From Dehalococcoidia bacterium (lineage in GTDB: Bacteria; Chloroflexota; Dehalococcoidia; Lucifugimonadales; QGNO01), in NCBI GenBank assembly GCA_965249115.1, contig CBDFLI010000002.1, forward strand, positions 153,859 through 217,858: a stretch of DNA of 64,000 bases. Reading direction: 5' to 3'. The notes under the pieces were generated by a model. It made no database searches, was not told where the DNA came from, and saw only the letters and a list, made by a program, of their open reading frames with translations. Made by a program: the position numbers and the translations under genes. This document shows, piece after piece, positions 4,092-64,000 of the stretch (the first letter of the stretch is position 1; every line of letters begins with the position of its first letter).

Positions 4092-5675
4092 TCAGTTGTA
4101 CTTTAGTAGCCAGTATTCCAGACTATCCACCACGGCCAGCCAGCTAGCCTCGATGATGTTAGGGGAAGCGCCGACCGTCTGCCACGTGTTGACGCCGTCG
4201 GTGGACTCTATCAGCACTCTCACCGTAGCCTCTGTTCCGGAGCCCTGGTCAACTACCCGTACCTTGTAGTCCTGAAGACGGACAGCTTCCAGCTTTGGAT
4301 AGTCATGGAGCAGCGCCTTACGAAGTGCCGTATCCAGAGCGTTCACAGGGCCATTCCCAACCGCCGCAGTGTGACGGACTTCAGCGCCCACTTTGACCTT
4401 GACGGTGGCTTCGGACAGGAGGTCTTCCTGGTTGTAGCCTTCGGAAGGGCGCCGGCGCTGCTCCACTATGACCATGTAGTCCACCAGCTCAAAGGGGGTG
4501 GCATAGCCGTCAATGGTGCGACGTACCAGTAACTCAAAAGATGCCTCTGCGCCTTCATACTGATAGCCGTTGTTTTCCTTGTTCTTGATCTCTTCGACCA
4601 GAGCAGCGGCCTGATCTCTGGGTAATTCAATGTTCAGTCCCAGTTCCTTTATCTTGTAGGTCACATTGCCCCGGCCCGCTAGCTCGGACACCAGCATACG
4701 CGTAATGTTTCCTACCAGAGAGGGTTTGATGTGTTGGTAGCTGTCCTCTACTTTGATCACGGCTGACCCGTGAAGCCCCCCTTTGTGGACAAAAGCACTG
4801 GTCCCAACAAACGGCTGAGTATTCAGGGGTGGCATATTCATCACTTCGCTGATGTACCTGTGTACCTCGGTAAGGGACGCCAGTTGGTCGTCCGTAAGGC
4901 AGGAGATCCCCAGCTTTAGTTTTAGGTTGGCGGCCACCGAGAGGAGGTTGGCGTTGCCGCAACGTTCGCCGTAGCCGTTGATGGTTCCTTGGACTTGGAC
5001 CACCCCGGCGGCCACGGCTGCTAGAGTGTTGGCCACGGCCACATCGCAGTCGTTGTGAGCGTGAATGCCCAGGGAGACGCTTACGTCACGTGCCACACGA
5101 GGAACTATTTCTTGGACCTCGTGGGGCAACGTGCCGCCATTAGTGTCACACAGGACTACCGTTTCGGCGCCTGCGTCGGCTGCGGCGCGGACGCATTGGA
5201 GCGCGTAGTCGGGATCGGCCTTATAGCCATCGAAGAAGTGTTCAGCATCCAGAATAATGCGGAGACCTTGCCCTTTCAGGAAGGCTACCGAGTCGGAGAT
5301 CATTGCCAGGTTCTCTTCAAGAGAGGTCTCCAATACCTCTGTCACGTGCAGGTCCCAGCTCTTCGCAACTAGAGTGATAACAGAGGCGCCTGAGTCCACC
5401 AGCGCGCGCAGATTGGCGTCTTGCTCTGGAGCTACTTTGGGACGTCTGGTGCTGCCGAAGGCGGTAACCGTGGCGTTGCGGAGTCTAGCGGACCGTACGC
5501 GCTGGAAGTATTCGATGTCTTTTGGGTTGGACCCAGGCCAGCCGCCTTCGATAAACGTTACACCCAGTTCGTCCAGCTTGCGTGTGATTTTCAGCTTGTC
5601 CTCAACGGACACAGAAATCCCTTCCTGCTGAGTGCCATCTCGTAGCGTGGTGTCGTAGAGTTGTATTGTCTGCAT
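4092..5675 (-). CDS. cimA: (R)-citramalate synthase (LeuA/CimA family)
   Basis: MQTIQLYDTTLRDGTQQEGISVSVEDKL...; HAHNDCDVAVANTLAAV; C-terminal LeuA-dimer-like domain. I prefer the ATG at 5675 (GAGGA 5 nt upstream) over the track's TTG at 5687. Confidence 0.85.
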   Translation of the reverse strand: MQTIQLYDTTLRDGTQQEGISVSVEDKLKITRKLDELGVTFIEGGWPGSNPKDIEYFQRVRSARLRNATVTAFGSTRRPKVAPEQDANLRALVDSGASVITLVAKSWDLHVTEVLETSLEENLAMISDSVAFLKGQGLRIILDAEHFFDGYKADPDYALQCVRAAADAGAETVVLCDTNGGTLPHEVQEIVPRVARDVSVSLGIHAHNDCDVAVANTLAAVAAGVVQVQGTINGYGERCGNANLLSVAANLKLKLGISCLTDDQLASLTEVHRYISEVMNMPPLNTQPFVGTSAFVHKGGLHGSAVIKVEDSYQHIKPSLVGNITRMLVSELAGRGNVTYKIKELGLNIELPRDQAAALVEEIKNKENNGYQYEGAEASFELLVRRTIDGYATPFELVDYMVIVEQRRRPSEGYNQEDLLSEATVKVKVGAEVRHTAAVGNGPVNALDTALRKALLHDYPKLEAVRLQDYKVRVVDQGSGTEATVRVLIESTDGVNTWQTVGASPNIIEASWLAVVDSLEYWLLKYN

Positions 5676-5700
5676 GTCTGTCCTCAATAACTTGTTTGAG

Positions 5701-5734
5701 GGACGAAAAAACCCGTCCCCTTAAGGGACGGGTC
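5701..5734 (-). terminator. intrinsic terminator of the T-box expression platform
   Basis: Minus strand ACCCGTCCC-TTAAG-GGGACGGGT followed by TTTTTT. It ends 25 nt upstream of the cimA ATG. Confidence 0.75.
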
Positions 5735-5996
5735 AATTAACCCGCGGTACCACCCTTGTTTCCCCCGGTAAACCGGAGGACGCTCAATGAAGCGCTATCA
5801 CGCTTCTGTCCTGGCTAACGGCGGACAACCCCGTCCCGGTCTACTCGCCATTTCAGATGCCTCTATGAAAGACACGACAGGCTTTCGGCGGGAGGCTCAG
5901 GAGTGATTTTCAGCAGGGCCCGCAACGTCCGCTTTCACCATACCGGACTCGCTAGGTCGGGGTTGACCGGCTTACTCGGCTCCTTCGCAACTGTTG
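5701..5996 (-). promoter_or_regulatory. T-box leader (tRNA-sensing riboswitch), probable Ile (AUC) specifier, controlling cimA
   Basis: Minus strand shows a Stem-I AGCGA element and a GGUGAAAGC distal loop. The specifier region reads CUGAAAAUCACUCCUGAGCC. The canonical T-box sequence AACAAGGGTGGTACCGCGGG lies at 5741..5761 and is followed by a terminator. Confidence 0.8.
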
Positions 5997-6002
5997 CATA
6001 AG

Positions 6003-8674: not shown

Positions 8675-9682
8675 TTAGCTCTCACTAAAGTAGCGGGCCA
8701 GCTCATCCCGTTCAAAAGAGGGCAGGCCCCGAATGCCTTGAGGCGTGTGCAGTCTGAGGCCATTGGAGGCCGGGGTGACCTTACCTATGACCTGCGCTTG
8801 GATGTTGGATTCGGCAAGGGACTTGAAGAGGGAAGGGGTGTGTTCCTCTGAAAGGGTTATCAGGAGAGCGCCGGAGGCCAGAAGGCCCAGCGGGTCCAGC
8901 CCAAGGGCGGCGCAGATGGAGCCACACTCCGGCAGGACAGGTATGCGCTCCTGGTCTATTTCTATACCGACCTGGGCCGCTGCCGCGATCTCCCTCAGCC
9001 CCGTGGCCAGACCACCTTCTGTGGGGTCGTGCATGCTGTGGACAGGCACGGCTTTGCAAGATGTGAGCGCATCCTGGACGACGCTGATCCCAGGTTTGAA
9101 CAGGTAATCACCAGCTGCCCGCACCATTTCCGGAGGAACTTCCGTGGACAGAAGAGCCTCTCTGGCCTCCCGCGCCAGGACCGACGTGCCCTCAATGGCG
9201 ATGCCCTTGGTCAGGACTATGTCGTCGCCGGGGCGGGCCCCGGAGGTACGCACAATGGAATCCGACGCGACCTCTCCCAGCATGTGCCCCACCAGTATGG
9301 GTCGCTGTAGTTGGTGCGTGACCTCTGAGTGTCCTCCAACCAGGGTTACTCCCAGTTCCTTGCAGGCAGCCACGGTCTGGCTGAAGATGTCTTCGGCCAT
9401 TCGCGGTTCTGCGTTCTCCGGAAGGAGTACGGTTGCCAGGAACCACTTGGGGACTGCGCCCATGCAGGCCACGTCATTGGCGTTGACCTGGACGGCGTAC
9501 CAGCCGATGAGGTCGGTGGCGAAGGTGATGGGGTCGGACTTGGCGACGAGTGCATGGCCGCCCATGTCTATCACAGCGGCATCTTCGCCGGTCATGGGGC
9601 CCACCAGGACGCGAGGGTCCTGGATATCCAGGGTACCCAGGAGTCGCTCCAGGAGGTCCGGCGGCAGCTTACCAATGTTCAT
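8675..9682 (-). CDS. AIR synthase-related (PurM/HypE/ThiL-fold) protein
   Basis: GEDAAVIDMGGHALVAKSDPITF...VNANDVACMGAVPKWFLATVLLP. I prefer the internal ATG at 9682 (MNIGKLPPDLL), which fits a promoter just upstream. Confidence 0.7.
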   Translation of the reverse strand: MNIGKLPPDLLERLLGTLDIQDPRVLVGPMTGEDAAVIDMGGHALVAKSDPITFATDLIGWYAVQVNANDVACMGAVPKWFLATVLLPENAEPRMAEDIFSQTVAACKELGVTLVGGHSEVTHQLQRPILVGHMLGEVASDSIVRTSGARPGDDIVLTKGIAIEGTSVLAREAREALLSTEVPPEMVRAAGDYLFKPGISVVQDALTSCKAVPVHSMHDPTEGGLATGLREIAAAAQVGIEIDQERIPVLPECGSICAALGLDPLGLLASGALLITLSEEHTPSLFKSLAESNIQAQVIGKVTPASNGLRLHTPQGIRGLPSFERDELARYFSES

Positions 9683-9694
9683 TGAAGGGATGCG

Positions 9695-9723
9695 ATGATA
9701 GCACAGGGACCGGTGGGTCTCAA
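9695..9723 (-). promoter_or_regulatory. promoter (extended -10) of the AIR synthase-related gene; the mRNA would be nearly leaderless
   Basis: Minus strand TTGAGA, 17 nt, TATCAT, with TGTGC upstream. The -10 ends 13 nt before the ATG at 9682. Confidence 0.4.
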
Positions 9724-9794
9724 TTCGGGACCAGGGTTGACGATACGTCGTCGGCTGCCCTTGCACGGGGTGGCCTGACGGATATACTGGGGGC

Positions 9795-10604
9795 ATGGCG
9801 CAACGAGATATGAGCGATGAACTGACGGACACCCCTTCTTCGTCCAGGCAGGCACGGGAGCAGTTTGGCCGGCAGGCGCGGTTCTACGCCGAGAGCAACG
9901 CACACCGGGCCGGAGAGGGTCTGGATGCCCTTGTAGAATACGCTGCGCTGGGTCGTTACGGTACGGCGGTGGACATCGGCACCGGCGCGGGGTTCACGGC
10001 ATTTGCGGTGTCGCCCTATGCTGAGCGGGTGGTGGCCACGGACATAGCGTCGGGCATGCTCGCCCAGACGCGCCGGCAGGCGGGCGAGAAAGGGATAACC
10101 GGCCTGGAACTGGTCATGGGTGAGGCCGAGAGGTTGCCGCTGGCTTCGGGTTCCGTGGGGCTGGTGTCGTGTCGTCAGGCGGCGCACCATTTCTACGACC
10201 TCCCGAAAGCGGTTGCGGAGATGTGGCGGGTCCTGGAACCCGGGGGAGCGTTTATTTTCACTGACCCCGTGGCACCGGATGACGACGAAGTGGCCCTGTG
10301 GATGAACGACGTTGAGGTCCGGCGGGATGACACCCATATCAGGGATCTGAACGCAGGGGAGTGGCGTGGCCTTTTGAGCCAGGCCGGATTTGTGGTGACC
10401 CATTGGGCCATCACCAAGGTTTACCTGGAGTTCAACGACTGGGTCCGGCGCTCTGCGACACCAAAGGGGAAGATAAGGCCGCTGCGCGAGGACTTTCTCA
10501 CGGCGCCGGCAGCGATGGCAGCGGCCTTTGGCATACGGCCGGACGGGGAGGATATACACTTCTACTGGGACGTGGTTGCCGTGAGAGCAGTAAAGCCGGC
10601 ATAG
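9795..10604 (+). CDS. class I SAM-dependent methyltransferase (UbiE/Methyltransf_11-like)
   Basis: VDIGTGAGFTAFAVSPYAERVVATDIASGML; VSCRQAAHHF. Confidence 0.85.
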   Translation: MAQRDMSDELTDTPSSSRQAREQFGRQARFYAESNAHRAGEGLDALVEYAALGRYGTAVDIGTGAGFTAFAVSPYAERVVATDIASGMLAQTRRQAGEKGITGLELVMGEAERLPLASGSVGLVSCRQAAHHFYDLPKAVAEMWRVLEPGGAFIFTDPVAPDDDEVALWMNDVEVRRDDTHIRDLNAGEWRGLLSQAGFVVTHWAITKVYLEFNDWVRRSATPKGKIRPLREDFLTAPAAMAAAFGIRPDGEDIHFYWDVVAVRAVKPA

Positions 10605-26502: not shown

Positions 26503-27807
26503 GTGACGATGGCTCAGACCATATCGGACAAACTGAAAAAATCCGTTGGAGGTCCCAGGGACGAGGACCTGTACAAGTGCGTCCATTGCGGCCTGTGTCT
26601 CAACGCGTGTCCAACGTACCTGGAAACGGGCCTGGAGACGGAGTCCCCCAGGGGGCGCATCGCGCTGATGAAGGCGGTGCGAGAGGAACGGGTGGGGCTG
26701 ACGCCTCGTGTGGTGTCCCATATGGACATGTGCCTGCAGTGCCGGGCGTGCGAGGTGGTATGTCCTTCGGGGGTGCCGTTTGGTCGGTTGATGGAGGCGA
26801 CGCGAGGACAAATTACGGACCAGCGCAAAGCCCCGCTGTTGCGCCGCCTTGCGCTGAGGCTGGCGTTTCGACACTTGCTACCGCATCCACGAAGACTGTA
26901 TGCCCTGGGTGCCGTGGTGCGGCTGTATCAGCGAACGCCGTTGTGGCGGCTGATGCGACGGTTCCCCGGAGTGTTGGGACGGCTGAACAGGCAGCTGCCG
27001 GTTCTACCGGGGGGCTTCTTCAGACCTTCACCAGGGGCGTATGCGGCTGAAGGTGCCGTGAGGGCCAGGGTGGGAGTGCTGTCGGGGTGTGTAATGGCGC
27101 TGTCCCACGGGCCGACCATGGAAGCGGTGGTGCGGGTCCTGGCGCGCAACGGTTGCCAGGTGGTTGTTCCTGTTGGTCAGGCGTGCTGCGGCGCGTTGAA
27201 CGTCCACGGTGGCGACAGGACACGGGCGCAGGAGATGGCACGTCGCAACATAGACGTTTTCCTGGAGCAGGGTGTGGACGCTGTTATCGTGGCCTCGGCG
27301 GGATGCGGCTCGGCGATGAAAGAGTACGGCGGTCTCCTGGAGGACGACCCCGAGTATGCCGAAAAGACGGAGCGGTTTGGCTCCCTGGTGAAGGACGTGA
27401 CCGAGTTCCTGGTTGACCTACCCTTCACGCCACCGAAGGGTCGCGTTCCCGTGCGGGTGACCTATCAGGACCCGTGCCATCTGGCCCACGCCCAGCGCAT
27501 AACCGAGGCGCCCAGGCAGCTGCTGAGGGCGATCCCCGGGCTTGACCTGGTGGAGATGGAGAGCTCCGGCCAGTGCTGCGGGGCCGCTGGACTGTACGGC
27601 TCGCTCCAGCCGGAGATGTCGCGACGACTGATGGAGAGGAAGGTGGCGTCGGTGGTGGATACGGAGGCAGAGGTGATGGCTACGGCCAACCCCGGTTGCG
27701 CGCTTCAGATAGAGATGGGGCTGAAGGCGGCGGAAAGCGGGACCCGGGTGCGCTACGTGGTGGACCTGCTGGATGAGTCGTACCAGCGGGAGAGAAGTGA
27801 TAGATGA
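26503..27807 (+). CDS. glcF: glycolate oxidase iron-sulfur subunit GlcF
   Basis: CVHCGLCLNACPTY and CLQCRACEVVCPSG ferredoxin motifs, plus two CCG domains (ACCG, QCCG). Confidence 0.9.
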   Translation: MTMAQTISDKLKKSVGGPRDEDLYKCVHCGLCLNACPTYLETGLETESPRGRIALMKAVREERVGLTPRVVSHMDMCLQCRACEVVCPSGVPFGRLMEATRGQITDQRKAPLLRRLALRLAFRHLLPHPRRLYALGAVVRLYQRTPLWRLMRRFPGVLGRLNRQLPVLPGGFFRPSPGAYAAEGAVRARVGVLSGCVMALSHGPTMEAVVRVLARNGCQVVVPVGQACCGALNVHGGDRTRAQEMARRNIDVFLEQGVDAVIVASAGCGSAMKEYGGLLEDDPEYAEKTERFGSLVKDVTEFLVDLPFTPPKGRVPVRVTYQDPCHLAHAQRITEAPRQLLRAIPGLDLVEMESSGQCCGAAGLYGSLQPEMSRRLMERKVASVVDTEAEVMATANPGCALQIEMGLKAAESGTRVRYVVDLLDESYQRERSDR

Positions 27808-51124: not shown

Positions 51125-51355
51125 ATGACCAACAGGTTCATCAACAGGAACACCAAGACGATTACGTTCTCCCTGCCGCCTGAGATGGCCGAGCAGGTGC
51201 AGGACGTCATGCGTGAGGAGGGCCGCACCATGAGCGAGCTCATCAGAGAGGCCCTCCGCAACTACATGGAAGAGCGGGAGTGGCTCAGGACCATCCGGTA
51301 CGAGAGACTCCGAGCTCGTCATGCCGAACAGGAAGATTCAAGGAGGACAAAATGA
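51125..51355 (+). CDS. ribbon-helix-helix (CopG-like) protein
   Basis: TKTITFSLPPEMAEQVQDVMREEGRTMSELIREALRNYM. Its stop overlaps the recombinase ATG by 4 nt. Confidence 0.75.
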   Translation: MTNRFINRNTKTITFSLPPEMAEQVQDVMREEGRTMSELIREALRNYMEEREWLRTIRYERLRARHAEQEDSRRTK

Positions 51356-52971
51356 AGGAACAACTACAGCCACTAACCCCGGCGGCGCTCTACGCCAGGG
51401 TCTCCAGCGAGCGGCAGGACGTGGACCTGTCCGTGTCCGCCCAGCTCAGGGCGCTCAAGGACTACGCCAAGGCCAACGGCTACTCCGTCGCCAGAGAGTA
51501 CGTGGACGAGGCCGAGAGCGGACGCGTCGCCGACAGGCCCCAGTTCAGGGAGATGATCGAGGAGGGGAGCCAGCCAAAGGCCCCGTTCCAGGTCATCTTG
51601 GTCTGGAAATTCTCCCGCTTCACCAGAAAGCGGGAGCACGCTGTGGCGTTCAAGTCGATGCTCCGGCGCAAAGGTGTGAGGGTCGTCTCCATCACCGAAC
51701 ACGCCGACGACTCCCCCACCGGCAAGCTCATGGAGGCCATCATCGAGTCCGTGGACGAATTTTACAGCGAAAATCTTGCCCAGGAGGTCGTCCGGGGAAT
51801 GAGGGAGGCCGCTTCGAGAGGCTTCTTCCTCGGCTCCAAGGCCCCCTTCGGCTACAGGCGGGTGAAGGTCAGCGACGGAGCCAAGGAGCGTCCCACCCTG
51901 GAGGTTGACCCTGCCACCGCTCCAATAGTGAAGGAGATATTCGAGAGCTCGCTCAGCGGCTACGGCCTCAAGGAGATATGCAGGACCCTGAACGACCGGG
52001 GCATCACCAACAGGGGCAAACGCTGGTACAAGGGAGGACTCCACTACCTGCTGACCAACGAGGCGTACACCGGCACAGCCGTGTGGGGCCGCACGTCGAA
52101 GGGAGAGAAGGCTCAGGACCCGGTGCGTGTTGAGGGAGCGTGGCCCGCCCTGGTATCCAGAGAGCTGTTCGTTGCCGTGCAGCAGGCGATGCGAGACCGT
52201 GCGCCGAAGGTGCAGAGGCCAGCCAGAGTAGGAAGCAAGTTCCTGCTGAGCGGTTTGCTCAAGTGCGGTGTGTGCGGCAGGCCCTACAGAGCCCAGGGAG
52301 CCAAGAGCGGACAGTACGGTTACTACATTTGCGGCACCCTGTTCACGGAGGGCGCGGGTACGTGCACCGCCCGATACCTGAACGCCCCCAGGCTGGAGGC
52401 GTTCGTAGTGGAGAAGATCAGGGAGCGCATTCTCACCGAGGAGACCATCGTCGAGCTGGTGACGATGGTGGCTGAGGAGATCGACGCCATGGCCGGGGAG
52501 TTGTCGGGTAGGCTGGAGGTCATCGAGGCGGAGCTATCGGACGTGAGGAAGCGGCTCGAGAAGCTCTACGAGGCCATTGAGACCAGCGAGCTGACGTTGG
52601 AGGTCCTGTCGCCCCGCATCCTGTCTCTGAGGCACCGCGAGGAGCAGCTGGAGGCTGCGCGAGACGATGCCGAGCGCCAGCTTGAACAGCGCAGGGTGGA
52701 GCTGCCGACCACGGAGGAGATCAAGGAGTATGTAGCGGACTTCCGAGACTTCCTGGAGGAAGGGACTATCCCCGAGTGCAAGGCGCTCATCCGCAACTTC
52801 GTGGAGGGCATCGAGGTCAACGGAGACGAGGCCGTGCTGACGTACACCATCCCCATGCCGAACGATGGTGTGACGTCGGAATCGGCCTCGGTTCTTGATT
52901 TCGTCAAGTCCGGCCCCACCAGCGACATTCGAACCTCTAGTTGCGCATTTACCGAAGACCTTCATCGCTAA
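51352..52971 (+). CDS. large serine recombinase (resolvase domain, recombinase domain, zinc ribbon, coiled coil)
   Basis: ATG follows AGGAGG. AALYARVSSERQD (catalytic Ser); VILVWKFSRFTRK; PFGYRR; CGVCGRPYRAQ...YYICG zinc-ribbon region. Confidence 0.9.
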   Translation: MKEQLQPLTPAALYARVSSERQDVDLSVSAQLRALKDYAKANGYSVAREYVDEAESGRVADRPQFREMIEEGSQPKAPFQVILVWKFSRFTRKREHAVAFKSMLRRKGVRVVSITEHADDSPTGKLMEAIIESVDEFYSENLAQEVVRGMREAASRGFFLGSKAPFGYRRVKVSDGAKERPTLEVDPATAPIVKEIFESSLSGYGLKEICRTLNDRGITNRGKRWYKGGLHYLLTNEAYTGTAVWGRTSKGEKAQDPVRVEGAWPALVSRELFVAVQQAMRDRAPKVQRPARVGSKFLLSGLLKCGVCGRPYRAQGAKSGQYGYYICGTLFTEGAGTCTARYLNAPRLEAFVVEKIRERILTEETIVELVTMVAEEIDAMAGELSGRLEVIEAELSDVRKRLEKLYEAIETSELTLEVLSPRILSLRHREEQLEAARDDAERQLEQRRVELPTTEEIKEYVADFRDFLEEGTIPECKALIRNFVEGIEVNGDEAVLTYTIPMPNDGVTSESASVLDFVKSGPTSDIRTSSCAFTEDLHR

Positions 52972-52985
52972 ACGCATGTGTTACA

Positions 52986-52995
52986 CTGGATCTGT
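52986..52995 (+). repeat. 10-bp direct repeat CTGGATCTGT (right candidate att core)
   Basis: Identical to 35984..35993. Confidence 0.45.
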
Positions 52996-53016
52996 CGGGC
53001 CAAATCTGGAGGTGGT

Positions 53017-53772
53017 ATGGAGAAGGTCGACTACGACGCACGCCTGCACGCCGTCTACGCCGCCGGCCGGCAGATGTCGCCCGATGCACAAAAAACCTGG
53101 ATGGAGGCGTTCGCTCGCCACCTGCCAGAGATACGGCCACTGGTCTGGCTCGACCTGGGCTCGGGTAGTGGCCGCATGACCCCCTCTTTGGCGAGTGCCT
53201 TCGGCGGCCCCGCCCACGGAGTCGAGCCGTCAGACAAGATGCGTGCTCAAGCCGTTGCTTACGCTGGCCATCCCGCCGTCACGTATGCGTCTGGGTCTGC
53301 CGAACACATCCCGTTGCCAGATGCCTCGTGTGACGCAGCCTTGCTGTTCTTCGTCTGGCACCACGTAGTCGATCGCGAGGGCGCTGTACAGGAGTTGCGC
53401 CGGGTCGTCAAGCCAGGCGGCAAGCTCTTCGTGCAGGCGAACTTCTCCGACAGGATGCCTGATACCTGGTGGTTCCGCGTCGTGCCCGAATGGCTGAAAG
53501 TCGACAAGGCGCAGTTCCGGTCCGAGGAAGAGGTGAAAAGTGACTTCGCCGGCGCCGGGTGGACGCTCCTCTCTCGCGATGAAGTCACCTGGCTTCGCTC
53601 GGCGAACCTGGCCGAGGACTTCGAGAAGCTGAAGCTGCGTCCCGTCTCGGTCTTCGAGCACATGAGCGAGGAAGTCGTCGAAGCGGACTTCGCCAGGATC
53701 GAGGCAGCGCTGCCCTCACTCGGCGACGGGCCTCAATACGAGACCAGCCAACTGCTCGTCTTCCAGCGCTAG
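53017..53772 (+). CDS. class I SAM-dependent methyltransferase
   Basis: ATG follows GGAGGTGG. WLDLGSGSGRMT; AALLFFVWHH. Confidence 0.8.
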   Translation: MEKVDYDARLHAVYAAGRQMSPDAQKTWMEAFARHLPEIRPLVWLDLGSGSGRMTPSLASAFGGPAHGVEPSDKMRAQAVAYAGHPAVTYASGSAEHIPLPDASCDAALLFFVWHHVVDREGAVQELRRVVKPGGKLFVQANFSDRMPDTWWFRVVPEWLKVDKAQFRSEEEVKSDFAGAGWTLLSRDEVTWLRSANLAEDFEKLKLRPVSVFEHMSEEVVEADFARIEAALPSLGDGPQYETSQLLVFQR

Positions 53773-53842
53773 CAGCGCAGTTTCTGGTCGGCCTGGGTAG
53801 AGACAGAAGGCCGTTGCTTTGGTGTGATGACTATACAGGATG

Positions 53843-53902
53843 CGGTGGAGGCCCCAGCTACGTTAGCACAGCGCTAATGCAGAAATGTTCGGTAAGCATC
53901 AG
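53843..53902 (+). repeat. 60-bp imperfect direct repeat, copy 1
   Basis: 45/60 identical to 55242..55301 (CGGTGGAGG....AGCTACGTTAGCAC..GCT...GC....ATG.TCGGTAA.CATC). Confidence 0.6.
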
Positions 53903-53929
53903 GCCACCCAGCCATGTAACGCAAAGGCT

Positions 53930-54223
53930 CTAGGAGATGGAACCGATTATGCTCTGGTATTCATCCTCTGTGAATGCCTTAAGCGTTGTAGACCTTATGT
54001 TCCCGGTCTTGTTGATTTCGAGCATGAACCGGGCTGCGGAATCGTCGTCAGGCATCTCTAGTAAGACCGCTAGATCATACTGGCCCATTAGAAGGTAAAA
54101 GAATACGATCCTGCCTCCCCTGTCCTCTGCTAATTGCTTTGCCGCTGCCAGCCGATCCGGGCTCTCCTTGATATTTTGTACTCCCTGAGTTGTATAATTG
54201 CCTAATACTAGATAGCTTGGCAT
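53930..54223 (-). CDS. GYD domain protein
   Basis: 97 aa. MPSYLVLGNYTTQGVQNIKESPDRLAAAKQLAE..GQYDLAVLLEMPDD. Confidence 0.75.
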   Translation of the reverse strand: MPSYLVLGNYTTQGVQNIKESPDRLAAAKQLAEDRGGRIVFFYLLMGQYDLAVLLEMPDDDSAARFMLEINKTGNIRSTTLKAFTEDEYQSIIGSIS

Positions 54224-54443: not shown

Positions 54444-55193
54444 TCACCTATCCTTCAGCTCTGCCAATTTGCGTTCGGCGTCCTCCGGATACACCGTTCC
54501 GATCAGCCGCCCATCCGGGTCGGTCACCAACGTGCTTTCCACATTCCCGCTGCGAAGTGACTCAACGACTGTTTCGAGTGAGGTGTCAGGGCGAATCGTC
54601 GCAGGGCCGAGTCGCATTACGTCCTCAATCATTGACTCTGGGTCGCCGTCCAGAGCACGGCCCCTCACGCGTCCAAGCACAACGTGTCGATCATTGATGA
54701 CGATGACGGCGTTCTTTCCCTCGGATCGAACTCGTGCGGCGACATCACCAAGCCTTTCACCGCTATGAGCGACGATGTCGTCATGCCTCAGGGTACTGCC
54801 AGCGGTCAATGGGCCAGCCGACAGCCCTTGGGTAGGCAGCGCCATCGCGAGCCAGTCCGCCTTGCCGTTCACATAGTCGTAAACCTTGGTGAATCCAAGT
54901 ATTTCGAGCCGCGCCGCGGCTCGTGGGCTCATGTCTCAGAGCGCGTCATGTCAATACACGATGACCGGGCGGTCCTTGTCGAGGCCGTTGGTCGTGTTTG
55001 CATCCAGGTTCTTCAAGGGAATGTTGATTGCATCCTCGATATGTTCGGCTTCAAACTCCGGCGGTGGAAGCACCTCAACAAGCTGGGCTGCCTCATCCAA
55101 AAGTAGCCGCTGGACTTCTTCGCGCCAAATCTTTGTGACCATAGCTTCAGCCTCCTGGGCGTCCTTGCGCTTTAGATCGCAGATATCCCGCAT
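54444..55193 (-). CDS. rhodanese domain plus CBS-pair protein with two in-frame UGA codons at the C-x4-C active-site positions (candidate selenoprotein; otherwise a pseudogene)
   Basis: ORFs 54951..55193 and 54444..54932 are in the same frame. Read-through gives ..AEHIEDAINIPL..DKDRPVIVY-U-HDAL-U-DMSPRAAARLEILGF..VYDYVNGKADW.., followed by CBS domains. UGA codons are at 54953..54951 and 54938..54936. Confidence 0.55.
54905..54923 (-). promoter_or_regulatory. SECIS-like hairpin downstream of the two UGA codons
   Basis: Minus strand CGAGCCG-CGGCG-CGGCUCG (7-bp GC stem, 5-nt G-rich loop). It starts 12 nt after UGA#2 and 27 nt after UGA#1. Confidence 0.4.
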
Positions 55194-55241
55194 TGTATTC
55201 CAGAAAGAGAGCGTGATAAGACACGATTATCATGAATGTTT

Positions 55242-56359: not shown

Positions 56360-59300
56360 TTACTCGGAGGGGGATGCGCCGGAGGGGCTCGGTGACGGCT
56401 TACGCAGTACAAAGAAGTACAGGACCGGGGCTATCACTGCAATCAACCCGGCGATGATACCAATGATCAGTCCTATGGACAGTCCGGCGGCGGGTGCCGT
56501 GACTTCAAAGGTGCCGAGCTGGCCCTCTATATCTACGTTGTATACGCCGGCCTGGTCCCGGGTGACTGTAAAGGTAACCTCCCTGTTCCCTCCGGCAGCC
56601 ACTGTCACGTCCGCGGTGTCTTCAACGGCGCCGTTGATTTCCAGAGTGATAGTGCGGCTGCCCGCTGCGTCTCCGGTATTGGAGATGGTCCCTGTGATGG
56701 TGACTGCCTCTCCGGGTTCTACGGTCTGAGGTGATATCTGCAGAGCCGAGAAGCTGAACACCGCGGTGGGCACCCGGAGGACGGTGAGCGTTCCGCTGAC
56801 ACCCTCGATCTGGACGTTGTAGGTGCCTGGTTCGTCTTTGATCAGGTCGAAGATGACGGGGATGGAGGTTAGCGCTTCGATGGTTACCGACTGGCGGGTC
56901 TCTTCCAGGCCGTTGATAAGTAAGACCACATCGAATGTGCCGTCAGTCTCTCCGGTGTTTTCCACTAATACTACAATGGTGCTGCGCTCACTTGGGCTGA
57001 CCTCCCCGGGACGAATATCCAGGTTGGATACGGAAAAAGCCGCGGGAGTAAGAGACCGCGCCACAGTAAGGGTGGTGGTCAGGCCACCCACGGATATCTC
57101 ATACTCGCCAGGGAGGTCCAGAGATATGGGGAAACTGATGGGTATGGACACATTCCCAGGTATCCTGGTTGGACGGATTTCAAATAGAACGCCGTTGAGC
57201 AGGATTTCCATGTCCAGCTTGCCCGCCTGGCTTCCGCGGTTGGTTACCTGAACGGTCAGGGTTGCCGGTTCATTGGGGGCTACCACACGAGGTGATACGG
57301 ACAGGTCGGTGTAGCTGACAGAAGCGGGACTCAAGACCCTTGCGATCTCCAGAGTGGCGGTCTTGTCCTCTACTTCGACCTGGTAGGACCCTACTTCGGC
57401 CTGGGTGAGGAAGAAGAGGACCTGGCCTAGCTGCCCGGCATCAAGGGATATTTCCAAGGTGTCCACGGGCTGGCCGTTCACCTGGAGTAAGACTCCAAAG
57501 GTGCCGGCCTGACCGCCGTCATTGGTTACCTGAACGGTTATGGCCACAGGCTCATCAGGCTCCGCAACCGGTGGGTCAATGAGTAGGTCTGCGATTACGA
57601 AGTCGGCGGGAATGGGTGCCGAGGCGACAAGAGCGAATATGGAGAAGCCGTTGGGGGAGATAGCGCGGAACACCATGCGGCCCTGATCATCGGTGCCGAT
57701 AAGTTCGGTATCCAGGAACTCCAGGCTTCCGTCATCGGCCAGACGGGTCATCTGCATGGCGTCCTGGCCTCCGTTCTCGGCTACCCACGCGGGGCTGATG
57801 GCCATTGTGATGCGGACCTCTCCGATGTCGGTTACGTTATCGAGGTTAGTGCGGTCGATTTGGATGGCCACACCTACGTTGGTGATGGTGTTGCCATTGC
57901 CCCGGGCCACCAGTTCAAACCCGGCCCTGGCATCAGGGGGCAGTTGCTTCTTGGGCGTCACGGTCAAGTTGGCGTTCTCCGGCAGGCGCTGAAGGTCAGC
58001 ATCCAGCGAGAAACTAACCTCTCCCAGGGTCGGGTCATCGGCGCTGAGGTCCACCTCTTGCTCTTCCGTGACGATTCTAAGGTTTGAGACAGTCGCCGTG
58101 GCTGTGGTTCCCGTGCCCACTACTCCATCGGTCTCGGCAACCAGGCGGAGGGTGACGTTTCCCTGGTCGTCTCTTGCCAGAGGGATCTCCACAGTGTTGC
58201 CATCCACTATTACACCGCTGTCAGCGTCCTCGAAGGACTCTAACCCTACGCCGGACGTTACACCTATGGGAAGCTCGATTACGATGCCTTCATCCGTTTC
58301 CTCTACGGTCAAGGTATCTCCGGTGACGGTCACCACGTTGTTGTTGGCGTCCAAGCCAGTGGCTTCAGTGCCGATGGTGACCTCGTCCGGGACTTCAACG
58401 GCAGTGTCCAGGGAAGGCGGAACAACGGTGAATGAGGAGGACAGGCCGCCCACTGATACGGAGTAGGTTCCCGGAGCTTGACGAACAACCCGGAAAGCAA
58501 TGGTCTTTTCCCTGTCCGGGGGCAGCGTGCCTCTTTGAACGGCCTCTGTTGTGCCACCCACTGTAAGGTTGGCTTCATACGTTCCAGGTGCGCCACCGGT
58601 GTTGGCGACTGTGACGCCAACGGTGACGGGATCACCGGGGCCCACGGTCTTGGGTTCAACGGTGAGACCTGAGAACTGGATGGTGGGGCCACGTACCACG
58701 AAGCTCTCCACCAGGTCTCCGACCTGGACGGTGTGGGTGCCAGGTTCAGCACTGGTTACGTTGGTGACGTGAGCACGGCTTGCCCGCGCTGGCAGGGTGC
58801 CGATGGCGGTAAACGCGATATCGCCGTCCAGCAACATAAGTATCTCATAGCTGCCTTCCTGTTCACCGACGTTGGTAATACGGAAGTTGACGGTCACCGG
58901 TCTTCCGGCGTTGACCAGGTCCGGAGCGACCACAAGGTTGGATACCTCAAATCCGGCCGGTACCGGAACGGGTGTGGGCGGAACTGTGGGCGTTGCGGTA
59001 GGCGTTGGTGTGGGAGTGGGCGTAAAGGTAGGCGTAGCCGGAGGTATGATTATGGGAGTAGCTGTAGCCGTTGGGGTGAATGTAGGCGTGGGTGTGAAGG
59101 TGGGTGTGGGGAGTAGCTCCACCGTAAAGGCCAGGGTGGCGGTTGCCCCCAGGTTTGGTGCTGGAAGCGCTCCGTCAAGGGCCCTGACGGCGAAGGTGTG
59201 GGACCCTGGCAGGAGGGCGGCGCCACCTGGCACGGTGTAAGTGGTGACGTTGCCTATGGCGGTGAAAGCGCCCCCGTCCAGGGAGACTTCATAAGTGGCT

Positions 59301-59941
59301 ACGCCTGTACCCACGTCCACGGCAGCGGTCCAGGTGAAGGTGGGCGTGTCATCCGTTGTTGGAGAACCACCCTCTATGCTGAGGTTGGTCGGCGCCTCGG
59401 GAGGTGTTGTGTCGGGTGGTAGGGCAGGTGGAGGCGGCGCAGAAGTAGGTGTTGCCGTTGCCGCAGGGCCACCTCCTCCGCCACCATTGCCGCTAATGGG
59501 TGGAGCGGGTACGCTGAGGTCCACCTCATCCACGCCTCCCGATTGCCAGGGGACGGAGGCGACCGGCGAACCATTAAGGGTCATGGTTGCCTGGACGCCG
59601 TTGACGAAGAAGACCACAGGGTCTCCCGCTACGCCACCCTCTTTTGGTCCGGTCTCGTTATCATCACCGGCTACGCGAAATTCACGGCCAGGAGCGGAAC
59701 CGTAGGAGCCGCCTAATGTGGTGTTTACGGTGGTCGAAGTGTGGTACTCGGTGCCGTTGATCCTAGCGGACACCTGAGTGCCGTCGGACGCTGCCGACAC
59801 GCCGACGGTTACGTCACCGGAGAAGGTGTGGGGTGAGGCCGGTACCGCCTGGACCTCTCCCTGGGCCACGCTGCTGAGGAGGAGGATGGCGAGGGCCATC
59901 GTAGCGAGGACGGTGACGAACCCCAGCGCAGGTCTATTCAA
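56360..59941 (-). CDS. large cell-surface protein: signal peptide, Pro/Thr linker, six or more CARDB-like repeats, C-terminal TM anchor
   Basis: TTG start, MNRPALGFVTVLATMALAILLLSSVAQG. TPTFTPTPTFTPT linker. Repeated modules end PGTY-V-V-G---F-V. C-terminal LSIGLIIGIIAGLIAVIAPVLYFFVLRK. Confidence 0.8.
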   Translation of the reverse strand: MNRPALGFVTVLATMALAILLLSSVAQGEVQAVPASPHTFSGDVTVGVSAASDGTQVSARINGTEYHTSTTVNTTLGGSYGSAPGREFRVAGDDNETGPKEGGVAGDPVVFFVNGVQATMTLNGSPVASVPWQSGGVDEVDLSVPAPPISGNGGGGGGPAATATPTSAPPPPALPPDTTPPEAPTNLSIEGGSPTTDDTPTFTWTAAVDVGTGVATYEVSLDGGAFTAIGNVTTYTVPGGAALLPGSHTFAVRALDGALPAPNLGATATLAFTVELLPTPTFTPTPTFTPTATATPIIIPPATPTFTPTPTPTPTATPTVPPTPVPVPAGFEVSNLVVAPDLVNAGRPVTVNFRITNVGEQEGSYEILMLLDGDIAFTAIGTLPARASRAHVTNVTSAEPGTHTVQVGDLVESFVVRGPTIQFSGLTVEPKTVGPGDPVTVGVTVANTGGAPGTYEANLTVGGTTEAVQRGTLPPDREKTIAFRVVRQAPGTYSVSVGGLSSSFTVVPPSLDTAVEVPDEVTIGTEATGLDANNNVVTVTGDTLTVEETDEGIVIELPIGVTSGVGLESFEDADSGVIVDGNTVEIPLARDDQGNVTLRLVAETDGVVGTGTTATATVSNLRIVTEEQEVDLSADDPTLGEVSFSLDADLQRLPENANLTVTPKKQLPPDARAGFELVARGNGNTITNVGVAIQIDRTNLDNVTDIGEVRITMAISPAWVAENGGQDAMQMTRLADDGSLEFLDTELIGTDDQGRMVFRAISPNGFSIFALVASAPIPADFVIADLLIDPPVAEPDEPVAITVQVTNDGGQAGTFGVLLQVNGQPVDTLEISLDAGQLGQVLFFLTQAEVGSYQVEVEDKTATLEIARVLSPASVSYTDLSVSPRVVAPNEPATLTVQVTNRGSQAGKLDMEILLNGVLFEIRPTRIPGNVSIPISFPISLDLPGEYEISVGGLTTTLTVARSLTPAAFSVSNLDIRPGEVSPSERSTIVVLVENTGETDGTFDVVLLINGLEETRQSVTIEALTSIPVIFDLIKDEPGTYNVQIEGVSGTLTVLRVPTAVFSFSALQISPQTVEPGEAVTITGTISNTGDAAGSRTITLEINGAVEDTADVTVAAGGNREVTFTVTRDQAGVYNVDIEGQLGTFEVTAPAAGLSIGLIIGIIAGLIAVIAPVLYFFVLRKPSPSPSGASPSE

Positions 59942-60195: not shown

Positions 60196-63100
60196 CTATG
60201 GTGTGATGAGGCCGTCAGCCACAACGAACAGCCAGAAGCCTTCACCCCTGTTGACTGCGTCCGGTGTTGGCACGGCCTGGCGAGATTCGAAGGCACCCAG
60301 CGTCTGGGTCACCCTGTCCTTAATGGACAGGGCACCGGCGTTCTCGTAGTCAAAGGTCACACCGTTCTGGAAGTTCAGGAGCGATGTCCAGACCCTGGCG
60401 GGGAAGGTGACACCGGCCAAGAACTGGTCCACGTTCTTGTCGCCTTCCGTATGCGGGCCAACCATATTCCAACCGGTCAATACCGTGAATACTGGCGGGA
60501 CATCGCTCGGGGTCAGGAACTGGCCAGACGTGGTCATGGTCATGCATGAGAAGCTGGGGGTAGTGAAGCCCGGCAGCGGGTCGGCCTGTTGGAATATGTC
60601 CTTGAAGACTCCTGTAGTTTCCTCGAACTTGGTCTTGGTGAATATCCAGTAGGCTTTACCCTCGCTCAGGTTTGACAGGGTGTCAGAACCAAGACCGGCA
60701 AACACCTCGAAGGTGGAGGTAGCCGCGTCGTAGTAAGTGATGGACTCCACGACATCTGATAGTTTGACCGTCGTAGTGGGTAGGAAGCTAGTGAATTCTG
60801 AATTGACGTTGGGCACCACTTGGCCGAGGAGTGTGTCGATGTCACCGGCCAGCAGTGAGCCCGCGCCGTCGGGATCATCGGGCTGGATGGGCACCGATAC
60901 AAGGTTGGCGTTCTGCTGGAGGCAACTGTTCCACGCGGTCATACTGGCGACAACGGTTGCCGACACAGTGGTCTCAGTGGTGTTGCCCGCCCCATCAGTG
61001 GCCCTAACAATTAGAGATAGAGGCCCAGGAGGCGCAGTGGGCGAAATCACGGTTGGGAATATGTGAGAACCTGTAGTCTGCCACTGGTCTCGGAGGACTT
61101 CCGGTACCTGGGACGCTTCAAACATCGCCTGGCCAGGCGACGAGAAGATCTCAACACTGGCAACGCCGGTCTCGGCGTCAGAGGCGGTTATCTGGTACAC
61201 CACCGGGTCACCCGGCTTGGCGGAATCAAAGGTGAACGGATAGATGGTGCTGAGGGCTGTCAGCGTCGGCCCTGCGATGTCCACTGTTACCGTGGCCAAC
61301 GGGTCACCGGCTGGGTTGGATTCCAGGCCTCCAGCGTCCACGAGGTTAACCACTATGTCGTTGCTGCCGTTCTTGAGGTTGACGATAGTAGAGAAGGTCG
61401 GGTCCGCCGAGTCGAAGGTCTTCTTGGAGAGGACCAGCTTATCGTTTACCTTGACCGTCAACAGCGAGGGGTTGTCCTCGACGTAGGTGCCAAACACCAC
61501 CTGGACGGGGTTGTTGGTTTCCAAAGGCTCCACGCCGTTGGCCAGTGTGGTCAGGAGGCCGTCGCCGTTGATGTCCTCGCCCTCATCGAGGACGCCGTTA
61601 CTGTTCACGTCCTCGGTCAGCAGCAGGGTGAGGATGGGGTTGCTGATGTCCAGGGATATGGTGATGCTGTCGGTCGCGGTCTGGGGGTCGTAGGCGGTGC
61701 GACTGGCGGTGACGAGTATGTCGTTGCTACCGGGCGCCAGGGGGAATGCACCGCTGAAAGTCCCGTTGACTACGGGTAGCGGGTCAACATCGGTAGCAGC
61801 ACCAGCACCGACGATCGAGACGTCGTCAACAAACCAGCCCTCGAAATCATTGACGGTACCGTCCACGGTGTCAAAGGCAAACTGGATGGCCCCTGTCTGT
61901 CCGACGAAGTCGTCCAGGGGAAGGTTGACCTGGGTGAAGACGGGAGCGGGTCCGGCAAATATTGCGGTTGGTATGTACACCAGGTCATAAGGCGCAATGA
62001 AGGAGTTGGAGAAGACTGTACCAGGGGCGGCACCGAACAGCGGAAAGCCGTCAGGCCCGGTGGGCGGAATGTCAACTATCTGAGCTATGGTGATGGGCGA
62101 GCCGCCAGACGGCACTATGTTGATGAGCTTCTTGTCGAAGATGAAGTTCGGCTCCGTGAAGTACCAGGTCCAGAAGCTGAGCTCTGAGTTCTCACCAATG
62201 GTGAAGTCGTCGCTGGTAGCGGTACCGCTATTCGTGCCGAAGGTGTTGTAGGTATAGAGAGGTCCCGGAGGCGCGGTGCCAACGTTATCGGCGTCTCTGG
62301 TGTAGGCCAGAGAGAAGGTACCGGCATTGACCCTGGGGTTACCCGGGTCTATGAAGTCGTCGGTTGCGTGCCACAACCCCGTGGTGGTGAAGCTGTCCAG
62401 TGAACCGCCTTCGAAGGTGGCGGGGCCCAACAAGGTGGTGGACGGCAGGTCAATGCCCAGAGTCACGGTAGTAACTGTGGGGTCGTTGACCGTTCCCGTC
62501 ACTGTGATGGGCGTGCTGGTAAAGGAGTCGCCATCCGATGGGTCGGTAATAGCTACGACCAGAGTTGGCACGGTCTCAATGGTAAACAGCACAGTCTCGG
62601 TATCGGTAGGATTGTGGGTGACGGCAAAGGTGGCCTTGTAGTCACCGGCGACGGTGGTCTCGGGTGGGGGCGCGCCGGGCACGCCGGCCTTGAAGACCTG
62701 TTGCGAGTCGTCGGTAAAGAGGACCACGTCACCGCGCTGTGTCAGACCGGTTATACTAAAGGGTGGGAATGTAGTCACGGGCTTGAAGTCGGTTATCTCA
62801 CCGGTCGACGGGTCAATGAACCAGAACTCGGCAAATTTACCTCCGAGAAGGAATGGGCCAGTTGGAGCGCCTGTCACCAGGGTGATGGACTCCAGACCGA
62901 ATGGTGACGGGATCGAAAAACCGGTAGTAAACAGGGTTGTGCTAAAGGTCACGGTAGCGGTGGCCGGATCAACGAAGAACAGGTCGTCGCTGAACTGGGA
63001 CATCAGTATAAGCTCAGTGCCGGCGGAGTTCACGGTCATGCCACCGATGGACCCCACAAAGCCTGGCAGTGATTTCGGGTAGTCTGAGTCAATCGTCCCA

Positions 63101-64000
63101 TTGGAGGGATCCACTTTAATCAACGAGGGTGGAAAGTCCAGGTTATTGACGGTGTAAAGGGAGCCACCCAAGAAGGCGAGGCCTTCTACGCCGCTCGTTG
63201 GAGCGTCAAAGAAATTGATTTGAGTACCGCTGTCGTTAACTTCAATGATCTTATCGCACGGGACGCCGCAGTTATTGGTACCAGCGTTGTCCATCAGGAG
63301 GAAAATGTTGCCGCTGGGGTCGTTGGTAATGGCCCTGGCAAAGTCACCGCCGCCACCGCCTGCTAAAGCGGTTGAGTAGATCTTGCCCTGGGATGCAGAC
63401 TCCGACAGGTACACCACGCCGGGACCGGCGATATCAAAGGCGATACCCGTTACGTTGGTGAGGGGGGTGCCGGAGTCCTCAACGTCAAAGGAGCCAAATA
63501 ACGCACCGCCCAGGTCAAATAGACCCAGCTTGCCGCCGAAGGCGCCTGCCACGGCGGACTCAGGGTCAATAAACGCCACGTCATTGTAGCCGCCGCCCGT
63601 AGGCGCGGCGGGGATATCGAGGTCTATCCCTGGCAAGCCGTCACTTGCCCTCCTGGCCCAAACAGGTATGGCGCCTGTGGGGGTGGAGTTCAGGTCGGAG
63701 GCTATCAGCCAGCCCACATCGCCATCTGAGTAGGGGTTGATGCCGAGGCCGGCAATGGGAACAGAACCCGGCAGCGCAAATGGTGTGTCGGAGAGCGCAG
63801 ACAGGCCGGTACCAGTCAACGTGCCAATCTTTATGAGTTCTTTATCAGGAGACGAAGTGCCTCGCGCGATCCACACGCTACCTGGAGTAGTAAAGCCCGT
63901 ACCCGGGTCTCCCTGCCAGGTCACGTCCTGAGCATCGGAGACGCCCACATCTATGACGTCGAAGATGAATCCAAAGGTCGGGTCAACCACCAGCAGAGTA
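60196..64000 (-). CDS. very large secreted / cell-surface protein, N-terminus outside the window (beta-propeller/NHL-like and Ig-like regions)
   Basis: An ORF of more than 1264 aa, open to the window edge. It is Gly/Thr/Asp-rich with repeated beta-strand patterns, and no enzymatic motif was recognised. Confidence 0.7.
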   Translation of the reverse strand, partial: TLLVVDPTFGFIFDVIDVGVSDAQDVTWQGDPGTGFTTPGSVWIARGTSSPDKELIKIGTLTGTGLSALSDTPFALPGSVPIAGLGINPYSDGDVGWLIASDLNSTPTGAIPVWARRASDGLPGIDLDIPAAPTGGGYNDVAFIDPESAVAGAFGGKLGLFDLGGALFGSFDVEDSGTPLTNVTGIAFDIAGPGVVYLSESASQGKIYSTALAGGGGGDFARAITNDPSGNIFLLMDNAGTNNCGVPCDKIIEVNDSGTQINFFDAPTSGVEGLAFLGGSLYTVNNLDFPPSLIKVDPSNGTIDSDYPKSLPGFVGSIGGMTVNSAGTELILMSQFSDDLFFVDPATATVTFSTTLFTTGFSIPSPFGLESITLVTGAPTGPFLLGGKFAEFWFIDPSTGEITDFKPVTTFPPFSITGLTQRGDVVLFTDDSQQVFKAGVPGAPPPETTVAGDYKATFAVTHNPTDTETVLFTIETVPTLVVAITDPSDGDSFTSTPITVTGTVNDPTVTTVTLGIDLPSTTLLGPATFEGGSLDSFTTTGLWHATDDFIDPGNPRVNAGTFSLAYTRDADNVGTAPPGPLYTYNTFGTNSGTATSDDFTIGENSELSFWTWYFTEPNFIFDKKLINIVPSGGSPITIAQIVDIPPTGPDGFPLFGAAPGTVFSNSFIAPYDLVYIPTAIFAGPAPVFTQVNLPLDDFVGQTGAIQFAFDTVDGTVNDFEGWFVDDVSIVGAGAATDVDPLPVVNGTFSGAFPLAPGSNDILVTASRTAYDPQTATDSITISLDISNPILTLLLTEDVNSNGVLDEGEDINGDGLLTTLANGVEPLETNNPVQVVFGTYVEDNPSLLTVKVNDKLVLSKKTFDSADPTFSTIVNLKNGSNDIVVNLVDAGGLESNPAGDPLATVTVDIAGPTLTALSTIYPFTFDSAKPGDPVVYQITASDAETGVASVEIFSSPGQAMFEASQVPEVLRDQWQTTGSHIFPTVISPTAPPGPLSLIVRATDGAGNTTETTVSATVVASMTAWNSCLQQNANLVSVPIQPDDPDGAGSLLAGDIDTLLGQVVPNVNSEFTSFLPTTTVKLSDVVESITYYDAATSTFEVFAGLGSDTLSNLSEGKAYWIFTKTKFEETTGVFKDIFQQADPLPGFTTPSFSCMTMTTSGQFLTPSDVPPVFTVLTGWNMVGPHTEGDKNVDQFLAGVTFPARVWTSLLNFQNGVTFDYENAGALSIKDRVTQTLGAFESRQAVPTPDAVNRGEGFWLFVVADGLITP

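Follow-up and report, generated by a model that had tools for sequence, protein, structure and literature searches.

Five rhodanese selenoprotein forms are described in a 2026 review (PMC13188914), among them TsoB (NF045694), which has two selenocysteines (Sec, U) in a UxxxxU motif, and a double-Sec rhodanese with a UxU motif was reported in 2007 from Olavius symbionts (PMC1976440). For UXXU hydrogenases, it has been proposed that one downstream selenocysteine insertion sequence (SECIS) decodes both UGA codons (PMC13582414). Here we describe a gene for a rhodanese domain followed by a CBS pair that contains two internal in-frame UGA codons (UGA#1 and UGA#2, or sites 1 and 2), and which lies in a 64,000-nucleotide stretch of a Dehalococcoidia bacterium genome assembly (GCA_965249115.1, contig CBDFLI010000002.1, positions 153,859 to 217,858 of the forward strand), hereafter the window. 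Like forms 1 to 4 of the known rhodanese selenoproteins (UxxS, UxxG, CxU/LYCAU) and the UxU form, the predicted protein has a rhodanese domain, and like TsoB (rhodanese/DsbD fusion-like; Haft & Tolstoy 2025) it would combine that domain with a U-x4-U motif and two Sec residues. On comparative sequence evidence, we put the probability that both internal UGAs encode Sec in an intact rhodanese-CBS gene at about 0.78. A preliminary description of the window, made from its letters alone, had already suggested a double-Sec protein served by a hairpin, and that suggestion is now supported by the conservation of both TGAs, by homologues with Cys in their place, by purifying selection, and by decay of the hairpin in the Cys-type genes.

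The gene occupies an otherwise single frame, 55193..54444 on the minus strand, in which the sequence and its translation contain two internal in-frame stops, both TGA. The read-through context is ...RPVIVY-UGA-HDAL-UGA-DMSPRAAARLE..., with the two UGA codons starting 15 nt apart and separated by the four codons CAT GAC GCG CTC (HDAL). When Cys was placed at both UGAs, Pfam recognized a Rhodanese domain at 52.5 bits (cutoff 22.2) and CBS at 35.9 bits (cutoff 24). In the HMMER alignment UGA#1 takes the place of the catalytic Cys of PspE, and at the position of UGA#2, the second Cys of the C-x4-C loop, a Cys is found in the homologues P0081 and P0099 and in the loop of the Bacillus halodurans rhodanese BH2092. 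The start codon is most likely ATG 55142 (MVTKIW...), which would give a product of 232 rather than 249 residues: N-terminal homologous fragments are exactly 63 aa long in 106 of 120 cases, those that were read begin at the Met equivalent to ATG 55142, and alignment A1 agrees with this start. The in-frame extension upstream of it is probably not translated, the homologues beginning at MxTxIWR and lacking it. The preliminary description was therefore right that a single frame is split only by two UGAs and that these fall on the catalytic Cys and on the second Cys of the loop, while the 249-residue length that it gave for the read-through protein should probably be shortened to 232.

A whole-protein search returned 1081 matches, the best 120 of which were examined. 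As many as 118 of these 120 were C-terminal fragments of 157-166 aa that start with MSPRAA, two codons past UGA#2, and the remaining two were full-length proteins that read VIVYCYDYQCDMSPRAA, which is the reading of the full-length homologues P0081 and P0099, with Cys at both UGA positions. A search with the 63-residue N-terminal part gave 120 clusters at 67-100% identity, and all except one (119/120) end exactly at ...VY, just before UGA#1. A genome-contig search with the single protein gave, among the matches listed, only distant Cys-type relatives. At the DNA level both TGAs are in frame in all nine distinct sequences of the U..U clade (the window, L036, L038, L039, L040, L120, L130, L138, and L139), in which the peptide between the two codons differs (HDAL, QDAL, WDGL, YDGL, MDGL, and WDAL). 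The ratio of nonsynonymous to synonymous divergence (dN/dS) of the U..U relatives against the window is ~0.05-0.25 in both halves of the gene, and dS is usually >1; synonymous sites are therefore saturated, yet both TGAs are unchanged. Both TGAs are found again, at identical codons, in assemblies made independently, which puts the pattern far beyond chance, as had been argued for the window gene on its own. The relatives also settled two of the checks that had been proposed at that time: both UGA-containing orthologs (the nine U..U sequences) and Cys homologues (P0081, P0099, and L115) exist, and the gene is not decaying in the relatives, which keep both TGAs, have no other stops or frameshifts, and are under strong purifying selection. 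We also observed that dS between the window and L039 is very uneven, at ~2.7 across the N-terminal 63 codons and ~0.29 over the 100 codons that follow UGA#2; either recombination in or close to the UGA/SECIS region or noise, given how short the N-terminal segment is, could account for this.

Downstream of the two codons lies a GC-rich hairpin that begins 12 nt past UGA#2 and 27 nt past UGA#1 and is part of the minimum-free-energy fold. Published criteria for bacterial SECIS elements (bSECIS) are an apical loop of 3-9 nt, a stem of 4-16 bp with a G in the first two loop positions, a distance of 16-37 nt from the UGA, and an energy of <= -7.5 kcal/mol (PMC13188914), and the window hairpin agrees with all four. 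Its loop, CGGCG (or GGC), is 3-5 nt long and fits N1-G-[G/U]-N-N2, its stem has 7-8 bp, and its energy is -14.0 kcal/mol in the window, with a range of -8.7 to -14.0 kcal/mol across all 76 UGA-type sequences. The distance from the apical loop to UGA#2, 19-20 nt, is typical for bacteria; that to UGA#1, 34-35 nt, is close to the upper limit of the accepted range. The place and SECIS-like geometry of the hairpin given in the preliminary description, including the offsets of 12 and 27 nt, proved exact. Conservation of the hairpin was measured on a gap-free alignment of 77 sequences, in which the hairpin columns pair in 96.4% of cells, as against 27-57% when the 3' partner is slid by 1-3 columns, and the loop G (position 1 or 2) is invariant in 77/77 sequences. 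Codon choice follows the hairpin as well: within it, the codons are frozen as Ala GCC (77/77), Ala GCG (77/77), Arg CGG (76/77), and Leu as only CTC or CTT, while the flanking codons are free, with six codons used for Ser, three for Pro, four for the preceding Arg, four for Gly, and six for the next Leu. The third base of the preceding Arg codon is A or G, and either pairs with the same U.

The frozen codons have drifted in all three genes that have Cys at site 2. L136 reads GCG...CGT CTG and its hairpin energy is reduced to -2.5 kcal/mol, L137 reads GCA...CTG and has lost the loop G, and L115 has CGC and an energy of -4.5 kcal/mol. These Cys-type genes are the decisive controls for the hairpin.

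The family set consists of 91 non-redundant loci from a metagenome scan and from plasmid matches. Site 1 is Cys (TGC or TGT) and site 2 is TGA in 77 of the 91, both sites are TGA in 10, both are Cys in three, and a single locus, L133, combines GGA at site 1 with TGA at site 2. Among aligned family sequences site 2 is TGA in 76/77, and it is TGC in all three Cys-type genes, L115 with its two Cys among them. From the locus counts it follows that site 2, the non-canonical Cys, is the family-wide Sec position, and Sec at this site is presumably the ancestral state of the family. In a neighbor-joining tree, all TGA...TGA genes form one clade with L040 basal, beside Cys...TGA forms with an x-D-x-L loop, and the Cys...Cys forms nest in two separate places. 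The tree and the site counts thus place the window gene in a derived clade that gained a second Sec at the canonical catalytic position. The close fragment clusters P0118, P0235, and P0259 are named 'Chloroflexi bacterium' by NCBI, and L120 comes from a metagenome-assembled genome of Chloroflexi (GCA_022560295.1). The Gly codon of L133 (288-290; protein cluster P0246, 11 member sequences) replaces UGA#1, with UGA#2 and the hairpin kept, and L133 shares one sample with L127, a TGA...TGA locus; the variant could be an allele that naturally lacks the first Sec, or could result from an error.

Our proposal, then, is that the gene would be translated into one 232-residue protein with a rhodanese domain and a CBS pair, in which the loop would read VIVY-U-HDAL-U-DMSPR with Sec at both UGAs. 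Recoding would be directed by the GC-rich hairpin within the R-A-A-A-R-L-E codons, which would be bound by the Sec-specific elongation factor SelB. The family is suggested to have started as Cys-x4-Sec, and the Chloroflexi clade to which the window belongs would later have turned the canonical catalytic Cys into Sec. The positions of the elements discussed, and of other features of the window, are collected in Table 1.

Table 1. Features of the rhodanese-CBS gene and of other parts of the window (window coordinates)
Feature	Position	Strand	Remarks
Read-through coding sequence	54444..55142	minus	232 codons including two UGA (putative Sec), plus its own TGA stop at 54446..54444
Ribosome-binding site AGGAGG	55151..55156	minus	8 nt upstream of ATG 55142, read from the sequence
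Upstream in-frame extension MRDICDLKRKDAQEAEA	55143..55193	minus	used by the preliminary description and by one gene caller (P0141)
UGA#1	54951..54953	minus	follows the VIVY strand directly; place of the canonical rhodanese active-site Cys
UGA#2	54936..54938	minus	second Cys of the C-x4-C loop; family-wide Sec site
SECIS-type hairpin CGAGCCG-CGGCG-CGGCUCG	54905..54923	minus	within codons R-A-A-A-R-L-E
Candidate small hairpin G(C/G)GCUC-[UGAGACAU]-GAGCCC	54925..54944	minus	UGA#2 in the loop; seen in the minimum-free-energy fold
Rhodanese homology domain	54846..55121	minus	Pfam PF00581, E = 7.3e-14; both UGAs in the active-site loop
CBS pair (Bateman module)	54450..54815	minus	the Pfam PF00571 match itself is 54468..54629
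Serine recombinase, methyltransferase, and GYD-domain genes	51280-54223		immediately downstream of the rhodanese-CBS gene
LeuA-type gene	4092-5687		HMGL-like and LeuA_dimer domains
T-box leader	5721-5997	minus	Rfam RF00230, 93.7 bits
1193-aa protein	56360-59941		Pro/Thr-rich linkers and CARDB repeats
1264-aa protein	60196-63990	minus	glucodextranase-B-like domain

Several observations weigh against Sec at these two codons. ARAGORN found no tRNA-Sec in the window or in 134 related loci (~0.9 Mb), and tblastn found no selA, selB, or selD in the same sequences, the E. coli queries for this search being approximate. The stem changes in the 77-sequence alignment are all to G-U wobble, with no double compensatory change, so that the RNA evidence is one of conservation, not covariation, and the covariance-model check suggested in the preliminary description gave no SECIS match to the hairpin in Rfam, either with gathering thresholds on the whole window or at E <= 10 on 54700..55200. 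The 27 nt between UGA#1 and the hairpin far exceed the spacing over which E. coli SelB acts. Because L133 carries GGA at site 1, Sec is not essential at that position, and no functional clue comes from the genes around the window gene, which encode IspH, a GYD protein, a methyltransferase, and a serine recombinase. As to the Sec machinery elsewhere, SelA, SelB, and SelD are on record for Pseudonocardia and Rubrobacter, genera with cultured carriers of the C..U form, and for many Chloroflexi. A second gene with an internal TGA was found 3 kb from the rhodanese-CBS gene in L120 (13157-14149, minus), where a DUF3179 gene has an in-frame TGA in the context ATW-U-PIC and is split by gene callers into 105- and 217-aa pieces; DUF3179 is listed among the selenoprotein families, with UxxC as its motif, and the L120 gene fits it.

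Two candidates for SelD were considered and rejected. The window ORF (open reading frame) 8675..9832 on the minus strand, the only notable match of the tblastn search, has AIRS and AIRS_C domains, starts with MNIGKLPPDLLERLL, and is 29% identical to E. coli SelD over 254 residues; it has neither the N-terminal Cys/Sec-Gly-x-Lys motif nor a GxGC/U motif and is for that reason taken as HypE/ThiL-like, not as a selenophosphate synthetase. A PurM protein in L038 was dismissed likewise. Further selenoprotein genes were sought in the window, where its GC-rich DNA gave 156 raw TGA candidates and a looser rescan scored by codon usage gave none that was convincing; the best other candidate, at 27805, looks like a true stop.

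The alternative closest to Sec insertion at both codons is that recoding is indeed aided by the hairpin but that Cys is inserted at one or both UGAs, either by a SelB-compatible tRNA-ReC (SelC*-type) or by leaky near-cognate read-through at UGA#1. The unusual distance of UGA#1 from the hairpin is in its favor, as is the occurrence of tRNA-ReC-like tRNAs in ~56% of the genomes with UXXU hydrogenases, in which either UGA may be read as Cys (PMC13582414), but no tRNA-ReC-type tRNA was found in the window or related loci, which are a tiny share of the genome, and Cys insertion would give no reason to keep TGA over TGC in a clade with saturated synonymous sites; we regard it as improbable. If the gene were split, an N-terminal peptide of 63 aa would be made separately from a CBS protein of 162 aa whose translation begins at the ATG two codons past UGA#2. 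This would agree with the presence of that ATG in the window and throughout the U..U clade, and with the two coding sequences, Pdca_RS35940 and Pdca_RS34830, that RefSeq gives for the C-x4-U gene of Pseudonocardia autotrophica, a division that gene callers likewise predict. The break would lie inside the rhodanese active-site loop, however, so that both pieces would hold an incomplete domain, and the ATG codon is Met in only 65% of the family, being otherwise CTC, CTT, CTA, ATA, ATC, or GTC, which are not start codons. Since the four codons between the UGAs are also held in frame with a constant x-D-[A/G]-L pattern, and since a split would leave both the hairpin and its loss in Cys-type genes unexplained, this arrangement is very improbable.

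Two stops in a short stretch, together with the indel errors that the preliminary description had reported elsewhere in the window, might also point to a decaying pseudogene or to errors of sequencing or assembly. These two TGAs are, however, shared by >100 independent clusters and assemblies, no further stops or frameshifts are present, purifying selection is strong, and in-frame TGAs cannot arise from indel errors, so that this explanation is effectively refuted. Genome-wide reassignment of TGA to Trp or Gly (genetic codes 4 and 25) has nothing in its favor beyond the two codons themselves and is refuted: TGA ends 4 of 15 confident window genes, including the rhodanese-CBS gene, the other 14 genes (up to 1264 codons) have no internal TGA, and in the homologues both sites are occupied by Cys rather than by Trp or Gly. 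The view that TGA is a normal stop here, with no global recoding, was already part of the preliminary description and stands.

If both codons are read as Sec, the question is how UGA#1 would be reached. Since the hairpin is within the accepted range of both UGAs, it would serve the one as well as the other, perhaps with the aid, in the U..U clade, of a small hairpin with UGA#2 in its loop; that one hairpin serves both is what we infer from these distances. All nine U..U sequences have G-N-G CTC before UGA#2 and AGC after the AUG, which allows the form G(G/C)GCUC-[UGAGAYAU]-GAGCCC with an energy of -12.6 to -14 kcal/mol if G occupies the variable position; in the window the small hairpin is weak, at -5.6 kcal/mol and 4 bp. 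Sister Cys...Sec genes have other synonymous codons at this site and no small hairpin. The small hairpin could, as a hypothesis only, shorten the effective spacer during the reading of UGA#1, and the shared codons may be equally explained by common ancestry, the nine sequences being one clade. In its fullest form, the idea would be that a single SECIS is used twice per mRNA: the small hairpin bearing UGA#2 would fold the 27-nt spacer and bring the SECIS-SelB complex in reach at UGA#1, the ribosome would then melt the small hairpin and meet UGA#2 at the normal 12-nt spacing, and the product would be a diselenide-capable U-x4-U loop on the rhodanese scaffold, while the Cys/Sec pair of the wider family would be a selenol acceptor for MerB-type organometal lyases. 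As a complete scheme this is unlikely, and we offer it as speculation.

A structural model is available for the Cys-type homologue P0081, for which AlphaFold2 gave a predicted local distance difference test (pLDDT) score of 83.6. The model contains the VIVY strand, a seven-residue loop with both sites, the MSPRAA helix, and then the CBS pair, and its top Foldseek matches are all CBS-pair proteins with a probability of 1.00. Genes within 6 kb of the rhodanese site were counted across the 91 loci. A MerB-like (alkylmercury) lyase is found in 20 of them, mostly directly upstream and on the same strand, a DF-family (seleno)protein (NF049942) in 24, an ArsR regulator in 21, a TlpA-like redoxin in 10, and MerR in 5. 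The Cys-x4-Sec loci with recurrent gene clustering include L134 (NZ_AP018921.1 222699-224881), L135 (NZ_CP045122.1), and L041-L114, and the order on the Pseudonocardia autotrophica plasmid pPA12743CP is MerR, MerB-family, DF protein, rhodanese/CBS, hypothetical, and MFS (major facilitator superfamily) transporter. The Cys...Cys loci L136 and L137 each adjoin a MerA-like reductase, which in L136 has 552 aa with HMA and pyridine-nucleotide-disulfide oxidoreductase domains and in L137 is a 75%-identical tblastn match. Within the U..U clade the ArsR-DF-rhodanese/CBS arrangement is kept only by L130.

From the scaffold and these neighbors, the two chalcogen residues of the loop may be a redox-active or metal(loid)-binding pair, which would form a selenenylsulfide in most of the family and a diselenide in the window protein. 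The pair would sit on a sulfurtransferase-type scaffold to which a nucleotide-sensing CBS module is attached, presumably in a regulatory role, and in many relatives the gene would act alongside MerB-like lyases, DF-family thioredoxin-like proteins, and ArsR/MerR regulators. The recurrent linkage of the Cys-x4-Sec form with MerB-like lyases, MerA, ArsR/MerR, and DF-family proteins suggests that the handling of organometals or mercury may include a step based on selenium, an idea that can be tested in the cultured carrier Pseudonocardia autotrophica NBRC 12743.

Immediately downstream of the window gene, the large serine recombinase has Resolvase, Recombinase, and Zn_ribbon_recom domains and is accompanied by a class I methyltransferase gene and the GYD-domain gene, and this region may be the edge of an integrated element. 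Elsewhere in the window, the T-box leader stands directly upstream of the LeuA-type gene, and the 1193- and 1264-aa proteins are probably cell-surface proteins.

No NCBIfam selenoprotein model matches the CBS-fused form above cutoff, and hundreds of genes from Chloroflexota, Actinomycetota, and soil and other metagenomes are called as a "rhodanese-like" stub of 63-68 aa plus a "CBS domain protein" of 162 aa; for Rubrobacter marinus only the CBS half is annotated in RefSeq. Recognition of the family would allow these annotations to be mended and would add another rhodanese form to the prokaryotic selenoproteome. The natural series C..C, C..U, U..U, and G..U bears on the value of Sec at each position of the C-x4-C motif, as well as on how far upstream one bacterial SECIS can reach.

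Among proteins with a solved structure, the closest comparator by sequence is BH2092 of Bacillus halodurans (PDB 3NHV and 3O3W; E = 6.5e-7), whose loop YCWGPACNGA has Cys at both positions aligned to the window UGAs, but which is an all-Cys, single-domain rhodanese without a CBS pair and is functionally uncharacterized. The hairpin resembles the fdhF-type SECIS of E. coli and the bSECIS consensus in being a coding-region hairpin just after the UGA with a G that opens a small apical loop, though there is no sequence similarity to the fdhF-type element, the upper stem is all GC-rich with no evident bulged U, and, unlike the fdhF-type element, it would also have to serve a second UGA 15 nt further upstream. 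In the UXXU/CXXU motifs of Group 4 [NiFeSe] hydrogenases, transitions between C..U and U..U have taken place upstream of an unchanged SECIS, as here (PMC13582414), though that protein family is unrelated and its UGAs are 9 nt apart rather than 15 nt. The UxU form of the Olavius symbionts is a precedent, within rhodaneses, for a second Sec evolving beside the first.

TsoB is the best NCBIfam match of the window protein, but at 31.6 bits it falls short of the cutoff of 805, and the match covers the rhodanese part only. Where TsoB has a DsbD-like membrane part, the window protein has a CBS pair, the U-x4-U motif that they share being known for TsoB by its description; judged by score and architecture, the predicted protein is not a member of TsoB. 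Thiol-redox partners are associated with both families. The rhodanese_LYCAU model (NF041203, CxU) scores 25.9 bits against a cutoff of 115, and the motif of the window family is U/C-x4-U. The sequence U-D-M-S of the window fits 'UxxS' of form 1 (WP_010941598.1) literally, as compared by motif description only. Neither 'CBS' nor 'CxxxxU' occurs in the text of the review, which lists no form with a CBS pair or C-x4-U (PMC13188914). The novelty claimed in the preliminary description thus holds in part: rhodanese selenoproteins were indeed known and the CBS fusion is in no listed form, while U-x4-U is less unusual than was thought, having already been described in TsoB. With form 1 compared by its description only, the low NCBIfam scores and the lack of a CBS or CxxxxU entry would therefore make the window protein a new addition, as yet without annotation, to the rhodanese-domain selenoproteins, a class that is already known.

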